Assembly: GCA_007376185.1 (NCBI GenBank)
Contig: VMFS01000008.1
Location: 1 to 50,692 of the forward strand
Source: Parcubacteria group bacterium Gr01-1014_30
GTDB taxonomy: Bacteria > Patescibacteriota > Minisyncoccia > Minisyncoccales > 2-12-FULL-40-12
Reading direction: 5' to 3'
DNA: 50,692 nt
The position numbers and the translations under genes were made by a program. Of the stretch, positions 11,667-41,200 are shown one piece after another (the first letter of the stretch is position 1; each line of letters opens with the position of its first letter). A model generated the notes under the pieces. That model saw only the letters and a list, made by a program, of their open reading frames with translations. It did no database searches and had not been told where the DNA came from.

Positions 11667-12542
11667 CTAAGAAATTGTGGATTCCAGGTAAGTACTGGGC
11701 TTAACTTCCGCCAGGAAGTCGGCAATCTCAGGAACAATGCACCTGCCGTTCAAGTAAAAATAGCAAACGCCCCGCGAAGTGTAATGGGGCTGATCTTGGA
11801 GTGGTTCAGCCGCAAGCTCTGCTGCGCGTCGGTGAACCTCCACATCTTCCTCTGGCGCCAAGCTGTCGTTGTAAACTTCGCAGCCGTAACTCGTTGCAAT
11901 CGCCCCAGCCAGAAACGCCTTAACCAATTTAGGATAAGACTCTCTGAAGTGTTTAATACAGGCCAGAGAGCGTTTGGCCGGTTCAAAGAACTCTTTCAAG
12001 CTCCGGCCGTTTGTACGCAATACTGCAAGCATTTCTTGTAAACCGCTAGTGGGCAAGTCGTAACGAATGCTCGCTTCAACAGCTACGACCTCCCGCTTTA
12101 TAACTTGGCCGGAATTTCCCAAAGTTTTTAATCTGTCAGAATCCACGACCAAATTATCCGGCTTGTAAAAAACAGCCGGAATCCCTAACTGTCTCAAGGC
12201 TTTGGCAGAGGCCTCACAAATTTGCCTTCTCAAATCGTCCAGCTTTGTCGGAAAATGCGAACGCGGTCCGGCAAGCGTGAAAACAATGTAACTATCGTCC
12301 AGATACACTGCTTGGCCGCCCGAGAGCCGACGCATTACTCCAATGCCCCTCTTTTGGCACTCGGCCAAGTCAACGTCTAGGGCTATATTCTGGGAACGAC
12401 CCACCAAAACAGAGGGAAACCATCTGGTAAAAGCTAGGGTAAATTCTCCTTGAGCCGCCTTTTCAAGTAGGAACTTGTCAAGAGCAGTGTTGTACAAAGC
12501 GTTTGCCGGCGGCAAATCCAAAATGCGGCACTTTTTTGCCAT
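11667..12542 (-). CDS. Lipoate-protein ligase A family protein
   Basis: SVLVGRSQ, VMRRLSGGQAVYLD; next to the pdh genes; AAAGGAGGTGA just upstream of ATG 12542. Confidence 0.8.
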   Translation of the reverse strand: MAKKCRILDLPPANALYNTALDKFLLEKAAQGEFTLAFTRWFPSVLVGRSQNIALDVDLAECQKRGIGVMRRLSGGQAVYLDDSYIVFTLAGPRSHFPTKLDDLRRQICEASAKALRQLGIPAVFYKPDNLVVDSDRLKTLGNSGQVIKREVVAVEASIRYDLPTSGLQEMLAVLRTNGRSLKEFFEPAKRSLACIKHFRESYPKLVKAFLAGAIATSYGCEVYNDSLAPEEDVEVHRRAAELAAEPLQDQPHYTSRGVCYFYLNGRCIVPEIADFLAEVKPSTYLESTIS

Positions 12543-23016: not shown

Positions 23017-23045
23017 TTGACAAATCTAAAAGTATATGCTATAAT
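23017..23045 (+). promoter_or_regulatory. Consensus sigma70 promoter with extended -10
   Basis: TTGACA-17 nt-TATAAT preceded by TGC; boxA-like TTCTTTGAAAA about 25 nt downstream. Confidence 0.85.
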
Positions 23046-23049
23046 GGCT

Positions 23050-23586
23050 TATAAGCGGAAAATAAGAGAGTTTCTTTGAAAATAATAAAGCAATAGAGAG
23101 AGGGGCAAAATTACTGCGTAATTTTGCGGGTTCTAACCTTGGGGAGGTTATATGTTAAACCCTGGGCTTGCTGACCCTTCCTTTTAGGAGGGGTCAGCAA
23201 GAACTCGCAAAGCGAGTTAAATGCGGCCTTCTCTTGGCCGCTTATTTAGTTCTTTCAGCTGAGTGGCACAACCTTCCTGAGTTTATCAAGGGAGGGCGCA
23301 GCCCCGGCACAAGGGCCAACCCTTGTCAACACCTGGTGTTGACAAGCGGCCAGTCACCCGCCTTCGCTCTGCTTCGCAGAGCTTCGGCGAGGTAAAAAAT
23401 TGAGTGCTCCTGACTTGCCTCGCCGAAGCTCATGCGGAGGCGGGACCCGCGAGTCGGGACCGGAGAAGAAAAGATTGTTCCTCGGTCTCGGCTCGCGAGG
23501 AGCCCCGCACCAGAACAAGTTCGGTGCGGGGCAGGCCGAACAGCACACAACAACATCGCCCGCCAGAGGCTGGCAGAGGAGGAGAG
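23050..23586 (+). ncRNA. Putative long structured leader or ncRNA
   Basis: Back-to-back hairpins, e.g. CTTGCTGACCCTTCC/GGAGGGGTCAGCAAG, CTTGTCAACAC/GTGTTGACAAG, GCCCCGCACC/GGTGCGGGGC; no credible long ORF. Confidence 0.45.
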
Positions 23587-23793
23587 ATGACAGAGCAGAA
23601 GAAAATACCGTACCGCTACCTTGTTGGCTGGATGGCACAAAACGATAGAGGGTTCGCTCACGGAACCCTAATCGTCAACCAATCCCACAGGATTCAAAAC
23701 GACGAGGATTTGATTGCCATACGAGACTTCGTCAGGAAAGAGGTAGGGCACCCGACGGCTTACATCACGGCGTTCAGCCGTTTCGAGGAGTAG
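23587..23793 (+). CDS. Small hypothetical protein (68 aa)
   Basis: AGGAGG before ATG 23587; globular composition MTEQKKIPYRYLVGW...AFSRFEE. Confidence 0.7.
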   Translation: MTEQKKIPYRYLVGWMAQNDRGFAHGTLIVNQSHRIQNDEDLIAIRDFVRKEVGHPTAYITAFSRFEE

Positions 23794-23832
23794 AGGCGCT
23801 GACCTGCGCCTCCCCGCGCAACGCGGGGCAAA

Positions 23833-23938
23833 GGGTTGAGCACTCAGCCCAAGTCAAAGTTCAGGGGAGGCGAGCAAATTCGCTTCGCCTCCCACCCTTT
23901 TCCGAGTTCCGACACAAAGTCGGGATTCAGAAAAGGGG
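23833..23938 (+). repeat. Conserved post-ORF structured module, copy C
   Basis: GCACTCAGCC; GGAGGCGAGC/GCTTCGCCTCC; CCGAGT...ATTCAG stem. Confidence 0.6.
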
Positions 23939-23986
23939 ATAGAAGTTCATTGAAACGCCGCCAGAGGGCGGCAGAAAGGAGGGCCC

Positions 23987-24622
23987 ATGAAGGCCCTAAT
24001 GGTCAGCGCCGCCCTCGCGGCGGCAATGGTAGCGGCGCTTCCGCTCGAAGCGGAAGCGCAGTACGGCGGCTACTACCCCACGCTTGAGGCGTGGGGTAGG
24101 GCCGGGGGGTACGGGTACGGCGGGTACGGTGGCTACGGCTACGGGTACCCGTACCGGGTCCTGTGGCAGGCCCCGGGCGTCAAGTTCCACTTGGAACTGG
24201 TGCCAGAGGACGAGATCGCCCTCGTCAAGAGGGGAATCGTGACGGTTAACGGGGCCGAGGTTGGCCTCGTAAATCGGCACGACGGCTGGTGGAACGCCCC
24301 CATCCAGGTGGCCTCAGGCCATCATGAAGTGGGGGTTGTTCTGGAAGACGGTCGCGTCTTCCAGACCTCAGTATTCGTGCAGCCGTTTCAAGTGCTGCAC
24401 GTGTACCTGCGGTTTCCGCCGGTTGGATCCCAGCCCTCGGCGCCACCACCCGCTCCAGCGTCCTCCCCGCCGGAGGCCGCGCCGCCAGTGCCGCAGGCCC
24501 CGGCTCCCAGACCGGCGCCTGCGCCGGCGCCGCCTGCCGCGGCGCCCGCGGCAGACGAGTGTGCTCACCTGTCGCAATATCCAACCCTTTTGGGTTGGTG
24601 TGCGGCTGGTCGGCGTAAGTAG
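23987..24622 (+). CDS. Secreted protein: signal peptide, Gly/Tyr-rich segment, PEGA-like beta domain, Pro/Ala tail
   Basis: AAAGGAGG before ATG; AEA signal cleavage; VTVNGAEVG...SGHHEV. Confidence 0.75.
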   Translation: MKALMVSAALAAAMVAALPLEAEAQYGGYYPTLEAWGRAGGYGYGGYGGYGYGYPYRVLWQAPGVKFHLELVPEDEIALVKRGIVTVNGAEVGLVNRHDGWWNAPIQVASGHHEVGVVLEDGRVFQTSVFVQPFQVLHVYLRFPPVGSQPSAPPPAPASSPPEAAPPVPQAPAPRPAPAPAPPAAAPAADECAHLSQYPTLLGWCAAGRRK

Positions 24623-24662
24623 CCAGCCAAGTTCCGGACTGGCGACCGACGCAAGTCGGAGT

Positions 24663-24785
24663 ATACACCACGCGCAGGCAAAGCACTCGCCGACGTGTGG
24701 GAGGAACAAAAGGAGGAAGCAACTGCAACACGCTTCCTCCCCAACTCCGAGTTCAGGTATGCGAATACGTGGATTCAGAGTGGGG
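24663..24785 (+). repeat. Conserved post-ORF structured module, copy A
   Basis: CCACGCG/CGTGTGG, GAGGAACAA, GGAGGAAGC/GCTTCCTCC, CTCCGAGT/ATTCAGAG. Confidence 0.7.
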
Positions 24786-24889
24786 AAACCCCAGTAGTAG
24801 AACGCTTCGCGTTCACTACAGGGCAGGGTTCTTTGCAAAATAAAAAAACAGCCAAGGACGGCTGAAAAGATAAATTGATTTTGAACTGA

Positions 24890-25174
24890 TTATTTCTGTT
24901 TTGCTTCAAGCATGCTTACGCGCCTTTCCAGGATGACAAACTCATCGCGTGAAACTTTTTGCTTCAAATCGTTTTTTATGACTTCAAGGTCAAGTTTAAT
25001 AACTTCCAAAGTTTCGCTGTTGGCCACTACTTGTTCTGCAACGGTTTGAATTTGGCCTTTCAAATCTTCAGTCATAACGTCAAAATGACGCTTGATTTCT
25101 CCAGTCTTTTCGTCAAAATGCCGCTTGGTTTCGTCTTTATACTCGCCTAAAATTTTTCTGATGTCGTCTACCAT
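24890..25174 (-). CDS. Small coiled-coil hypothetical protein
   Basis: Heptad pattern, EFVILERRVSMLE; TGCTACCAT -10 box 7 nt upstream of ATG. Confidence 0.75.
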   Translation of the reverse strand: MVDDIRKILGEYKDETKRHFDEKTGEIKRHFDVMTEDLKGQIQTVAEQVVANSETLEVIKLDLEVIKNDLKQKVSRDEFVILERRVSMLEAKQK

Positions 25175-25378
25175 ATATTTAATGGTAGCAATTGGAAGTT
25201 AAATGTCAAATGCAATGCTTCAACTGAACTCACGAGTTTTGCTCGCGGGTTCTGAGAGGCAGTTCTTTCAAAAGTTTCGCGGTCTTGGATAAGCCCTGAG
25301 CTTGTAGAAGGGTTTGTCCGAGGCCGCGATGACCGCGGCGCTCGACAGTTCCCGCCGAAGGCGGGGGAGGAGAGAAGT

Positions 25379-26083
25379 ATGGTAGGACCGTTTTCGGTTT
25401 TGATTTTTCTTGCGATGATCGCCGTGTCAACGGCGAACGCGCAGACTCCAGACGATGACCAAGGCGGCGTTACCGCCTCGGCCAACGCCTGGCTCGACCT
25501 CTTCGTCGGACCCGACGGCGACGTGGTTTACCCCCAGTATATGTTCAGAGTGGCGACGGAGAACATTGTTGTGACGGGCTACGGATTCTGGGAACGGGCG
25601 CCAAATGAGCCCGACTTCACAAACCACGTGAATACGGTCACCTACCAGCCATTTTCAGCTTTATCTTTGCGAGCTGAAACCGGCGGACGTACTCGGGATT
25701 TCGAGATTCGCTCGCCTCGGGGCGGTGCGATTACCATTCCGCCAGCGGCGTTCTTCCAGGTCGGGCCGCAAGTGAACCTGCACCGGTTGGGCAAGTTCAA
25801 GGGACTGGACTATATGGTTCTCTCCTACCTGCCCCACCTGGCCGGGATCCGCCCAAACAATACCATCCTCGCGGGCGGCACCACGCGGCTCCCTGTCATG
25901 CGGGGAATCGCGGTCTCGGTGGAGGGCTACCGCCGGTTCTTCCCGGAGGGAGCGGACTACGCCGAGTACTGGTTTCTCGTGCACCCCACTCGTACCAACG
26001 GGCACATGGGCTTTGGCGTCTTCTTCCTCCAGGATGGGAGGGCGAAGAGTCTCGGCTTCGGCGTGCGACTGGAGCCGTTGTAG
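25379..26083 (+). CDS. Secreted protein, probable beta-barrel fold
   Basis: GGAGGAG upstream; signal peptide ending ANA; alternating hydrophobic strands, C-terminal LGFGVRL. Confidence 0.72.
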   Translation: MVGPFSVLIFLAMIAVSTANAQTPDDDQGGVTASANAWLDLFVGPDGDVVYPQYMFRVATENIVVTGYGFWERAPNEPDFTNHVNTVTYQPFSALSLRAETGGRTRDFEIRSPRGGAITIPPAAFFQVGPQVNLHRLGKFKGLDYMVLSYLPHLAGIRPNNTILAGGTTRLPVMRGIAVSVEGYRRFFPEGADYAEYWFLVHPTRTNGHMGFGVFFLQDGRAKSLGFGVRLEPL

Positions 26084-26094
26084 CGGAAAGTAGA

Positions 26095-26218
26095 ATACAA
26101 ACCGCGCATGGCATGCATTCAGCCATGGCGCGGGAGGAACAACAAGGCGGAGGCAATAAACAGCGCCTCCGCCCCATCTCCGAGTCCTCAAACAAAAATT
26201 TGAGGGTTCAGAGCAGGG
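26095..26218 (+). repeat. Conserved post-ORF structured module, copy B
   Basis: CCGCGC/GCGCGG, GAGGAACAA, GGCGGAGGC/GCCTCCGCC, CTCCGAGT/GTTCAGAG. Confidence 0.7.
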
Positions 26219-26271
26219 AAGTAAGTTAAAGATTAGAGGCCCGCCTTCGTCCTTCGGGCTACGGCTAGGCA

Positions 26272-26346
26272 AGGCCGGAGGCGCTTTTGCGGCGGGATAG
26301 AACCCTCTCTCCCTGCCGTGGGAGCGCCTGCGGCCTTTTATTTTTT
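26272..26346 (+). terminator. Long hairpin plus U tract closing the island
   Basis: AGGCCGGAGGCGCTT...GAGCGCCTGCGGCCTTTTATTTTTT. Confidence 0.6.
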
Positions 26347-26404: not shown

Positions 26405-26810
26405 GCAATTAGAAAGGTTAATAAGCCAAAGATATGGCAAGAGAAAAAGAGACAAAGTGTAACTGTGGAGGCGGTTGCGGATGCGGCGGTAACTGCGGTT
26501 GCTAATGATTGGTTGATAGAAAAAGTTAGGTTGAGAGCTCACGAGGTCTCTTCGTGGGTTTTTGTTTCCGCCTGATTCGGAAAGCACTTTGAAAAGTTAA
26601 AATTAACAGCTGGTAATATCATAAATACCGACCCACTTCGGAAGGGGGTCGGGGAAACCCACAGGTTTCCCCGTGTAGGAAAACAGGCTTTCGCCGAAAG
26701 GCGAAAACGTTAGAAACCGAGGGTTTCTAAAGAGCGGCGTAGTGAAACGAGCCGCGACCTGATTATATATTACCACTGAGTCAGTTTTTTAGAGTTGCCT
26801 CGACATACTT

Positions 26811-28448
<1,638 letters not shown>

Positions 28449-28764
28449 TTTTAAAGTTGTCGACTGGAATTGGTTTGCGAGAATTCTCAAACTAACTCCA
28501 AGGTGTTGGTCTTTGCACCTAAAAGGAAGACCTCGAGGCAACTCTAAGAAACTTACTCAGTAACTCAAATCAGTTCGCGGCACGCGCGATTATTAAATGT
28601 CGCTTTCGCGACCGCGCTTAGCCGTTCTTTAGAAACCCTCGGTTTCTAACGTTTTCGCCTTCGGCGAAAGCCTGTTTTCCTATACGGGGAAACCGGATGG
28701 TTTCCAGGTCGGGAGTTTCCGCTCTTGGTAAAATTAAGCAGATTGTTTTTTGCAGCTAAAGGCT

Positions 28765-38241: not shown

Positions 38242-41200
38242 TTAACTTTCCACAATTTCCTGGACGTCTTCGCAGATTATTTTGGGGACGCCGTCACGGT
38301 TGTCAACACGGCCGGAAACGAAAACGACTTTGTTTTCCTGAAAAGCCAAAGGGTTTTTCTCAATGACTGAAGGAAAAGCCACCATTTCAATTTTGTCGGT
38401 TAAGTCCTCCAGTTTCAAAAAAAGCATTGGTCTGCCGGTTTTGGTGATTATTTTTTTGATTGATGAAATCACGCCGCCAACTTTGACTCTTTTGTTGATG
38501 AAACTCGCCGATATTTTACTTATCGCCAAAACTTTTTGTTCAAGAATTTTTCTGAAATCTTCCAAAGGGTGCGAGCTCACAAAAAGCCCCAGCAACTCTT
38601 TTTCCCAGCTTAACTTTTCTTGTTTTGTTGCAGGCAGGGCAGGAGTCAGAGTAAAGCCGTTGTTAAAGTTATCGCTGCCGTCAAAAAGCCCTTTTTGGCC
38701 GTTTGATTTTGTTTTTTGGCTTTCTCTTGCCATTTCCAGGAGCCGCTCCAGGTTGGCCAAAAGCTGGTTTCTTTCGACCAGCTTGTCAAAGGCGCCGGCT
38801 TTAATCAAACTTTCCATTGATTTTTTGTTTAGATCTTTTGAGGCCACTCTTTTGACAAAGTCAAAAATTGAGCTAAAAGGGCCTTTGTTTTTTCTTTCTT
38901 CCACAATCGCCTCCACCACGTTGTGCCCCACGTTTTTAATTGCCAATAAACCAAAACGAATTTGCTTTGGCGGCACAACCGTGAAGTTTTTCAAGCTTTC
39001 GTTGACGTCGGGCGGCAAAACCTCTATACCCATTTTTTTGCACTCTGAAATCAGAAAACCGATTCTTTCAACGTCGGCTTTTTCAGACGTCAAAACCGAA
39101 GCCATATACTCAACAGGGTAGTTTGCTTTTAGGTAGGCGGTTTGGTAAGCGATCAAAGCGTAGGCAGCCCCGTGCGCGCGGTTGAAGCCATATCTTGCGA
39201 AAGGCAAAACCCAGCGCCATATTTTTTTGGCCGTGCTTTCTGGAATGCCGTTTTTAATCATGCCTTGAATCAGTTTTTCTTCCTGGGCGTCCAGAAGTTT
39301 TTTGATTTTTTTGCCCACGGCCTTTCTTAAAGTGTCGGCTTCAGACAAAGTGAAACCCGCGAGTTCTCTGGCTATTTCCATTAACTGTTCCTGGAAAATG
39401 CAAACTCCATAAGTTTTCTCCAAAATGGGTTTTAGCTTTGGATGCATGTATTCAACTTTCTTTTTCTTGTGCTTGCCCGAGATGTAGTCGGGTATAAACT
39501 GCATTGGCCCGGGTCTGTAAAGAGAAACCATTACTATAATGTCTTCCAGTTCAGTCGGTTTTAATTCTTTAAGGTATCTTTGCATCCCCGATGACTCCAG
39601 CTGGAATACGCTTGTGGTTTCTCCCTTTTGCAGAAGTTTGAAGGCGGCTTTGTCGTCAAGGGGAATGCCCTGAATGTCAATGCTTTTGCCTCTAACTTTA
39701 TATATTCTTGCCAGCGTGTCTTCAATTATGGTGAGGTTTTTCAAGCCGAGAAAATCCATTTTCAAAAGACCCAGGTCTTCAACGGAGTGCATTTCGTACT
39801 GCGTAACAATGGTCTGGTCGTTTTGAGTCGGGTGCTGAAGAGGCGTTATGCTTTCAAGCGGCTCAGAAGAAATTACGACTCCGCAGGCGTGGGTTGAAGC
39901 GTGTCTAGCGCAGCCCTCAAGTTTTTTGGCGAGATCAATCAGTTTTGTGGCTTGCGGATCTTCTAAATAGACCTGGCGAAACTCTGCAACCTGGGCCAAA
40001 GTTTGATCCAAAGTCAAGCCAAAAGGAATCATTTTGGCGATTTTGTCGCAGTACAAATAGGGGTAGCCCAAAGCCCTGCCCACGTCGCGGATTACGGCTC
40101 TCGCGGCCATTGTTCCGAAAGTTATGATTTGCGCCACCTTGTCTTTTCCGTATTTTTGGGCTACGTAGTTTATGACCTCGTCTCTTCTTCTGTCGGTGAA
40201 GTCAAGGTCAATGTCGGGAGGCGATATTCTTTCCGGGTTGATGAAGCGCTCAAACAAAAGATTGTATTTTAGCGGGTCAATGTTGGTGATGTTGAGCAGG
40301 TAAGCCACCAAAGAACCCCCTACAGACCCGCGGCCCGGCCCCACAACTATGCGGTTTTGCTTTGCCCAGTTCACAAAGTCCTGCACAATAAGGAAATAAG
40401 AGGCAAAGCCGGTTTGCTTTATCGCTTGCAATTCGTAGTCCAAGCGTTCAAGAATCACTTTGGCCGGTTTTTTTCCATATCTTTTTTCCAAACCCTGCAG
40501 GCACAACTCTTTTAAGTAGCCGTCGGCGGTTTTTCCAGGCGGCGTTTCAAACTTAGGGAGTTTTGTTTTACCTAGCTCAAACTCAAAATTGCACTCCGTT
40601 GCGATTTTTTGCGTATTTTCAAGAGCTTCAGGAACCTCTTTGAAAAACTCTGCCATTTCTTCCGGGCTTTTAAGAGAAAAATCGTCCTGCCGCATTGACA
40701 AGCGCTCTGGGTCTTTTGGGTCAGCCCCGGTGTTGATGAGCATCAAAATGTCCTGGGCTTGGGCATCTTCTTTTTTTAAGTAATGCGAGTCGGCCGTGGC
40801 AACCAAAGGTATGCCGGTTCTTTCTGAAATATCTATAAGCACCTGGTTGACGTTTTTTTGGGCGGGAATGTTTTCGTGGTGCTGGAGCTCCAAATAGAAA
40901 TTGCCCTTGCCGAAAATTTCCTGATATTTCAGGGCCTGTTCTTGGGCTTGGGCGCTTTTTCCAGCAAGTATTAACTGCGCCACCTTTCCCTGAAGACAGG
41001 CAGAAAGCGCGATTAACCCTTCTGAATGCTCTTTGAGCAGTTCTTCGTCAATTCTGGGTTTGTAGTAAAATCCTTCAAGAAAAGAGCGCGTGATAAGTTT
41101 TACCAAATTTTTGTAGCCCTTTTCGTTTTTGACGAGTAGAATCAAGTGATATCTTTTGTCATCTATGTTTGGCCTTTCCTGAGTGTGGCCTTCAAAGGCC

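Follow-up and report, generated by a model that had tools for sequence, protein, structure and literature searches.

A new covarying RNA stem family and its gene islands in a patescibacterial genome without an anti-Shine-Dalgarno sequence

Tandem gene cassettes with attC sites are known from integrons, and long-range pairing between 5' and 3' loops is known from the kissing of plant-virus 3' cap-independent translation elements (3' CITEs) and from the docking-site/selector arrangement of Dscam. In phage T7, the early mRNA is a polycistronic precursor of approximately 7,000 nt with five RNase III signals (PMC3867540; see also PMC1540722). Loss of the anti-Shine-Dalgarno (anti-SD) sequence has been published for a Parcubacteria subgroup (Tsurumaki et al. 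2022, PMC9297842). Here, we describe an island of three Shine-Dalgarno (SD)-led open reading frames (ORFs), each followed by a structured module of three hairpins (H1, H2, and H3), in Parcubacteria group bacterium Gr01-1014_30. The window, i.e., the whole 50,692-nt stretch of DNA that was analyzed (VMFS01000008.1), is contig C8 of a 769-kb genome that is 97% complete. The original prediction, made from the letters of the window, had placed a promoter, three ORFs, and three modules between 23017 and 26346, and all of them were found there (Table 1). H3, the last stem of the module (approximately 20 bp), represents a new covarying RNA family.

The window island and a second island on contig C1 (9066 to 6099, minus strand) share one grammar, which is also present in relatives: a promoter, a boxA-like box, a leader, n repeats of a unit (5' hairpin, SD, ORF, [H1, linker, H2], H3, and boxA-like box), and a terminator. 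The C1 island contains three further modules and repeats the promoter, leader blocks, 5' hairpin-SD unit, modules, and terminal hairpin around different ORFs; the likeness between the two scaffolds ends at the ATG and restarts at the stop codon. This second island, the putative leader dock, the boxA-like boxes, a lone H3, the insert at 24890-25174, and the missing anti-SD had not been part of the original prediction. Folding z-scores on the sense strand were -8.6, -5.4, and -6.5 for modules 1 to 3, respectively, and none of 200 shuffles per module was equally stable. As predicted, the H2 stems covary, and the linker GAGGAACAA occurs in two copies (24701 and 26134), which belong to modules 2 and 3; these two modules also match each other (E value, 1e-5; blastn against the genome). 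A covariance model built from the six modules of the window and C1 (R1) recovered all of them with strong scores and gave no comparable match in the rest of the genome. Because the six matches arise by construction, what matters is that dispersed copies were not found. Each of the six full modules sits behind the stop codon of a strongly SD-led ORF, the SDs pairing with a canonical 16S tail at -10.5 to -12.4 kcal/mol.

Pairing in H3 is conserved despite changes on both strands of the stem. In an alignment of 24 H3 copies (A7), which were selected as hairpins and whose kinship can inflate covariation, 90.8% of the cells were paired and 14 of the 19 pairs had changed on both sides; the covariation score was reached by none of 500 shuffles, and slid controls were 40 to 64% paired. 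Similar pairing (91% over the 19 modelled pairs) was obtained for 82 model-fitted H3 rows, 10 of which are opposite-strand duplicates. The proposal that structure is under selection is borne out. An A-U pair is invariant (82/82 rows) and has a neighboring G-U pair in 51/82 rows. The C-A mismatch that had been pointed out in H3 is present in all three window copies and does not hold across the family, in which the same position is U-A in 33, C-G in 32, and unpaired in 12 of 81 rows. Scanning with Rfam 15 returned only the start of the 16S rRNA in the window (next best E value, 1.2) and only tRNAs in four island loci. In the literature searched, which excludes supplements and most subscription papers, neither this module nor SD-led cassettes nor a transfer of mRNA by Patescibacteria is described. 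The module is real and new as an RNA family, and its membership of any known family is not supported. Group I and group II introns, hammerhead, tmRNA, SRP, and RNase P were considered as well; none had a core visible by eye or an Rfam match.

The distribution of H3 extends well beyond this genome. R1 matched 17 of 150 relatives, mostly through H2-H3 and in a few cases by chance (G006 and G137). A model built from H3 copies (R2), which includes the boxA-like tail and was trained on genomes of the order, matched 43 of 121 genomes of the order (six of which are training genomes) versus 5 of 137 genomes outside it, a contrast confounded by training on the order. Two tests related these matches to genes. 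One returned 30 loci, from which six training-genome loci were dropped; among the 24 best non-training hits left, an SD-led ORF ended within 260 nt upstream in 17; flipping the strand left 1 of 24, and random positions gave 4.0 on average (maximum, 8). The other comprised 41 loci with 82 hits, reduced to 72 by removing opposite-strand overlaps, and for the 43 hits outside training loci an SD-led ORF was present within 150 nt upstream of H3 in 27 (4 when flipped) and on either side of H3 in 35 (11 when flipped). The claim that the module trails ORFs thus stands for SD-led accessory ORFs, to whose 3' ends it is linked. It does not accompany every such gene: R1 finds none beside three relatives of ORF3, and most SD-led genes of this genome are without one. 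H3 also occurs ahead of genes (at 25218 and in the leader of G149) and ahead of separate U-tailed terminators, and it therefore brackets units and is not itself a terminator. In the window, the lone H3, which was spotted by eye because it resembles H3 of the second module on C1, precedes ORF3, so that ORF2 and ORF3 are each flanked by H3 on both sides.

The whole grammar is present twice in tandem in G003, a member of the same family as this genome, and G053 has four units in tandem. A strict pattern of the module, searched in 401 genomes of the order, was found in this genome only, and a looser pattern added G002 (2/400). H3 matches were also found in two genomes from lineages with an anti-SD: G464 itself carries the canonical sequence, and G459 belongs to a family that has one. 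None of 14 loci returned by a scan of viral sequences matched R1, and a metagenome scan yielded 52 loci, all by chance, the best three inside a coding gene; close relatives in metagenomes were not reached by it. In two genomes, H3 occurs in promoter-led units of 300 to 600 nt without an ORF (L139, G061:C8 near 39022-39105; L145, G118:C1 near 154109-154429), which are possibly noncoding RNAs using the H3 signal.

The SDs of the islands stand in a genome whose 16S rRNA ends with GGATCATTAAATTT and has no anti-SD. GGAGG or AGGAG precedes 21 of its 479 long ORFs. At a textbook spacing, five measured island SDs pair with the genome's own 16S tail at -0.1 to -0.3 kcal/mol (core-gene median, -1.1). 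The window ORFs fall in the top 1 to 2% of core ORFs by G+C content at third codon positions (GC3; Table 1), the core mean being 0.47, and two C1 ORFs have values of 0.53 and 0.76. The anti-SD or a near form is absent in 51 of the 53 genomes of the order with a readable 16S end and present in all 48 genomes outside the order (by a stricter pattern); 16S ends were not found in G473, G459, and the three genomes holding ORF3 relatives. The 16S sequences of two genomes of the order (G041:C15 2809-2852 and G035:C15 652-695) either have kept a canonical or near-canonical anti-SD or are misbinned, and neither genome has an H3 match. In G053, all six SDs next to H3 pair with the residual 16S tail of that genome at -5.4 to -9.5 kcal/mol; the values are -6.6 and -4.4 kcal/mol in G085 (in which two further hits have no ORF) and just -0.1 to -4.3 kcal/mol in G091. 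SD types of H3-flanked genes include GAAAGGAGG and GAGGTGA. SD-led genes of the present genome include ordinary enzymes, namely, a lipoate ligase, a NUDIX protein, an RNase J-like protein, and a CDP-alcohol transferase. The genes of the RNase J-like protein (L023 3111-4604) and the lipoate ligase (window 11670-12542, minus strand) are SD-led in a genome that is otherwise SD-less.

The three ORFs had been described as orphans, which is correct for ORF1 only: this protein has no relative among 5.8 billion clusters. ORF2 encodes a signal-peptide-like start, a Gly/Tyr stretch, a PEGA-like domain, and a Pro-rich tail; a PEGA domain is carried by the weakest of its six relatives, and the closest Atlas clusters, which serve as a lead only (scores, 0.89), consist of PEGA proteins and come mostly from Acidobacteriota. 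ORF3 and its 15 relatives make up a barrel family; the two relatives with names are Patescibacteria proteins. Its AlphaFold2 model (pLDDT, 92) has an N-terminal helix (residues 4 to 20) followed by approximately 12 long strands in a beta-barrel, with a clear alternation of residues in some strands only. Its structure matches in the Atlas are outer-membrane-type barrels (template modeling [TM] score up to 0.73, CopB), and those listed from the PDB are membrane barrels, nearly all of the outer membrane, at low TM scores (0.24 to 0.48); a PDB sequence search with an ORF3 profile gave nothing below an E value of 0.067. ORF3 is accordingly predicted, from the model, to be an outer-membrane beta-barrel with an N-terminal signal helix. 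Omp85 (BamA) was detected in none of 121 genomes of the order and in 7 of 14 controls. Three ORF3 relatives are SD-led and form stand-alone or operon-terminal units, in which R1 finds no module; their GC3 values (0.62, 0.63, and 0.53) are mostly above those of their neighbors. One record titled Saccharibacteria (L044) has an ORF3 relative among SD-less core genes that resemble those of this order, and its label may be wrong.

Table 1. Features of the island in the window and the end of the 16S rRNA gene
Feature	Position	Strand	Remarks
Sigma-70-type promoter	23017..23045	+	TTGACA (23017-23022), 17-nt spacer, TATAAT (23040-23045)
boxA-like box GTTTCTTTGAAAA	23070..23082	+	Counterpart in C1 leader
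Conserved leader block (GCTTATTTAGTTC, GCTGAGTGGC ... GGCGCAGCCCCGGC)	23231..23323	+	76% identity to C1
Predicted leader docking site AAAAAATTGAGTGCTCC	23394..23410	+	Best partner of every hairpin-1 (H1) loop
Second leader site TTGTTCCTC	23475..23483	+	Complementary to GAGGAACAA linker
5' hairpin and SD (GGAGGAG) of ORF1	23557..23586	+	Same hairpin-SD unit ahead of two unrelated C1 ORFs
ORF1, 68 aa	23587..23793	+	True orphan; GC3, 0.66
Module 1	23833..23937	+	H1 23833-23850 (loop GAGCACTCA), H2 23864-23893, H3 23895-23937
boxA-like box (23945-23955), then 5' hairpin and SD (AAGGAGG) of ORF2	23945..23986	+	
ORF2, 211 aa	23987..24622	+	PEGA-like; GC3, 0.75
Module 2	24668..24783	+	H1 24668-24700, linker 24701-24709, H2 24712-24740, H3 24741-24783
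boxA-like box after module 2	24828-24838	+	
Inserted AT-rich gene, 94 aa	24890..25174	-	GC3, 0.41; no SD; paralogue on C9
Lone H3 stem (25218-25259) and boxA-like box (25262-25272)	25218..25272	+	Ahead of ORF3
5' hairpin and SD (GGAGGAG) of ORF3	25351..25378	+	
ORF3, 234 aa	25379..26083	+	Predicted beta-barrel; GC3, 0.74
Module 3	26102..26217	+	H1 26102-26133, linker 26134-26142, H2 26146-26173, H3 26174-26217
Terminal hairpin with T-run, terminator-like	26272..26346	+	74% identity to end of C1 island
3' tail of 16S rRNA gene, GATCATTAAATTT	28439..28451	+	No anti-SD

The promoters of the two islands are 90% identical, and the leader of G002 contains a shortened homologue of the conserved leader block. 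In the 16S leader, GCACTTTGAAAA (26584) is similar to the first boxA-like box of the island. A hairpin-rich repeat occupies 23102-23222 of the leader, with further copies on C2, C6, and C9 and in G002. The gene at 24890..25174 (minus strand) is outside the cassette grammar. Both islands are interrupted after the second module by AT-rich genes on the opposite strand, the C1 interruption (L001 7164-7653, plus strand) being a gene pair that by eye resembles a toxin-antitoxin system. The first ORF of the C1 island (L001 8643-8317, G000:C1, minus strand) has a lipoprotein-like start and an in-frame TAG at codon 19, which reflects a pseudogene or an assembly error. Elsewhere in the genome, L022 (G000:C9 10268-14230) comprises four SD-led genes with signal or transmembrane segments, a different repeated leader, and no module; one of these genes encodes an OmpA-family domain (E value, 6.5e-7). 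A long, near-perfect inverted repeat (window 26653-26803 and 28533-28705) encloses the 16S gene; the inner stem of the repeat (CAGTTTTTTAGAGTTG / CAACTCTAAGAAAC) has hardly changed in G053 and G091. The 23S gene (G000:C9 57752-62168), which is unlinked from the 16S gene, measures 4.4 kb and is likely to contain insertions.

The loop of H1 is a predicted docking partner of a 5' leader site, a layer seen in one family. The consensus of the loop, RWGCAYUYR, shows complementarity to AAAAAUUGAGUGCUC, an A-tract-led motif of which the genome has exactly two copies, one in the leader of each island. All six H1 loops have this leader site as their best partner island-wide, and a homologous A-tract site is the best partner in G002 and G003 (8/8 tests in total); none of 24 shuffled loops chose the leader site, and 2 to 3% of trials with shuffled leaders produced such a site. 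In G003, the loop and the dock have both changed. The linker GAGGAACAA has TTGTTCCTC in the leader as its best partner for modules 2 and 3 (-14 kcal/mol), the C1 pairings being weaker and not consistently best. H1 with the linker is rarer than H3, being found by pattern in 2 of 400 genomes and additionally in G067. Several points weigh against docking: the G003 loop was chosen by eye, the G003 dock is predicted to be mostly paired locally within the leader (that of G002 partly so), the second G003 module has no such loop, and the dock predicted for the loop of G067, whose module lies at a contig end, was not found.

What H3 does is best approached through RNase III, and of the three roles offered by the original prediction (recombination, processing, and sorting or export), RNA processing fits best, and RNA sorting or export is possible. 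The island would be transcribed as one RNA and treated in the manner of a stable RNA, with a boxA/NusB step recurring behind every H3. H3 stacked on H2 would then be an RNase III substrate, and cutting there would release single-gene, end-protected mRNAs. The predicted cut register is a two-pair center between a U-A pair and the invariant A-U pair, with approximately 9 bp on each side; a mismatch at this center would favor a single nick that leaves a protective 3' hairpin. Loop-leader pairing could link the leader to the 3' ends, either with a single module engaged at any one time or in trans. The genome has rnc (E value, 5.5e-40) and nusB, and rho was not found in it. H3 has about two helical turns in its 19 modelled pairs and is stacked on H2 in full modules. 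RNase III is described as holding approximately 22 bp, usually with a GC or CG pair between the cuts (PMC6212723), as preferring A-U or U-A beside the cut and accepting stacked helices, and as making single cuts with protective 3' hairpins at bulges (PMC1540722). GC or CG is present at the H3 center in 65 of 81 rows, and the two-pair center and its flanks partially fit this footprint and these preferences (PMC6212723 and PMC1540722; see also PMC11780869).

A number of results speak against this assignment. Both center positions are paired in 51 of 81 rows, versus approximately 90% of the E. coli in vivo sites covered in PMC6212723, and no clear distal box could be placed in H3. Compared with the pre-16S stem, H3 reaches a joint score of 11.0, for which the 90th percentile of the background is 11.6 and training copies score 15.8 to 36.9; the pre-23S stem is unlike H3. 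Most SD-led genes of this genome carry no module, and the boxA-like box that follows H3 in 20 of the 43 hits is a circular enrichment because the boxA-like tail belongs to R2. The best leader site for likeness to H3 was the pre-16S stem in 3/3 genomes scored (the second best site in one), at a score near the 90th percentile of the background, and the pre-16S stem was rejected as a model for H3 since the likeness is not above background. Given the partial fit to RNase III rules, we infer that H3 is most likely an RNase III-type boundary signal yielding single-gene mRNAs, a reading to which we give roughly an even chance.

If H3 is not cut, it could be a double-stranded handle by which an RNA-binding protein (a noncutting RNase III or another) sorts, stabilizes, or exports the mRNAs. 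The fixed length of the stem, the invariant A-U and frequent neighboring G-U pairs, the frequent mismatch at the center, and the promoter-led units of G061 and G118 would all suit such a handle, and RNase III action without cutting has been described (PMC3867540); a bare tag, however, need not flank genes on both sides or directly precede a separate terminator, and no candidate binding protein was identified. We consider a handle unlikely. A role of the module in DNA recombination, as a site within an integron-like cassette system, had been entertained in the original prediction and is suggested by the scaffold likeness that skips the differing ORFs, by the four-unit arrays of G053, and by modules that also fold as DNA on both strands. 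No module has both RYYYAAC after the stop and GTTRRRY at its far end (0/6, with two stray internal matches), and sense-strand G-U pairs outnumber A-C pairs 117 to 29, a ratio partly built into the model. The reported absence of an integrase or reverse transcriptase in the window extends to the genome: the sole tyrosine recombinase of this 97%-complete genome is Xer-like, lies on another contig, and scores 215 to 218 bits on Xer models versus 88 on the integron model TIGR02249 (cutoff, 265), and PF00078 is absent (0 of 1). No RNA run was listed among the sequencing runs containing the island. In contigs of one DNA sequencing run, which is possibly the source of this DNA and adds no independent evidence, depth is even (near 13) over the island, and the joints match the C1 paralogue or are weak. 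With no Rfam match, attC core, integron integrase, or reverse transcriptase, cassette recombination is therefore unsupported and highly improbable. Retroelements (retrons, diversity-generating retroelements, and group II introns) were rejected on the absence of a reverse transcriptase in the genome. The genome is full of mobile hairpins, several of them in the leader, and the modules might be taken for selfish hairpins resembling repetitive extragenic palindromic (REP) elements, or for weak terminators, that gather in accessory regions. In line with the original prediction, which did not recognize the module as a REP element, an attC site, or a terminator, there are only six copies in two islands, none dispersed, all in one orientation and behind SD-led stops, and H3 is followed not by a U-run but by purines and a boxA-like box, with separate terminators at the island ends. 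Copy count and strand bias mostly refute this very improbable reading.

RNase III-type boundaries would be compatible with more than one reader of the resulting mRNAs. Translation in a host is a live reading, since the 16S rRNA is without an anti-SD and no BamA was found for the outer-membrane barrel predicted from ORF3; the host-cell ribosome would be the single most coherent reader of this genome's unit mRNAs, a view that we hold only tentatively. The islands would then be mRNA-effector factories: an SD-blind epibiont would cut the stable RNA of host-style genes at H3, bundle the products via docking, in a manner likened to segment assortment in segmented RNA viruses, and pass the mRNAs to the host, whose ribosomes and BAM would make proteins such as the outer-membrane pore. 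This scheme, too, is speculative and rather doubtful. Pairing of the SDs of G053 and G085 with the residual 16S tail weighs against host translation and supports its strongest rival, namely, that the epibiont itself uses these mRNAs, reading the SD via the residual tail or having it as part of the 5' hairpin, while the module merely tunes mRNA stability. Own use also gains from H3 in lineages with an anti-SD (G464 and the family of G459) and from the ordinary enzymes among the SD-led genes here, and it is compatible with RNase III cutting. In the present genome, by contrast, own-tail pairing of the island SDs is weaker than the core median despite textbook spacing, the predicted barrel has no known insertase in the order, and GC3 is high in the ORF3 relatives; we place own use somewhat short of an even chance. 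Members of this class are reported to parasitize methanogens (PMC10936435, PMC13293708, and PMC12281837), and the GAGGTGA-type SDs of G053 and G085 could suit an archaeal host as well as their own residual tail.

With the stem family, found in approximately one-third of the order genomes searched, and the docking hairpin, SD-led genes of anti-SD-less Patescibacteria gain a searchable RNA grammar, which makes it testable how such epibionts act on hosts. If hosts read the mRNAs, mRNA delivery between prokaryotic cells would be a parasitic strategy, and under the effector-factory scheme the SD flavor and codon bias of H3-flanked genes would report the host. If hosts do not read them, the islands would still represent an undescribed processing system for accessory genes.

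Among known systems, integron cassettes are similar in having variable single ORFs in tandem behind one promoter, each followed by an imperfect hairpin; they differ from the islands, in which core sites and IntI are absent, G-U pairs are conserved on the sense strand, and the scaffold includes a shared 5' hairpin-SD and a boxA-like box. As in the 3' CITE and Dscam systems, a conserved 3' loop is complementary to one 5' site and several loops would compete for one dock; here, this would occur in a bacterial chromosomal mRNA. rRNA operons resemble the islands in the boxA-like box, which occurs in the 16S leader and after each H3, and in a U-tract-NGAG arm present in H3 and in the pre-16S stem of four genomes, and differ in that the cargo of the islands is protein coding and the stem likeness is not above background. 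The 16S rRNA lacks CCTCCT as in the Parcubacteria subgroup of PMC9297842, and the SD-led accessory genes and the 3' module are features seen here that go unmentioned in the available portion of that report. Unlike the T7 early-mRNA signals, the modules are chromosomal, belong to an order-wide family, are tied to SD-led accessory genes, and are followed by a boxA-like box; one family adds a leader-docking hairpin, the boxes match E. coli rules in part, and cleavage is predicted. Like the T7 signals, H3 is a stem of approximately two turns between genes of one transcript, and a single nick at its irregular center would leave a protective 3' hairpin, with unit mRNAs as the predicted product.

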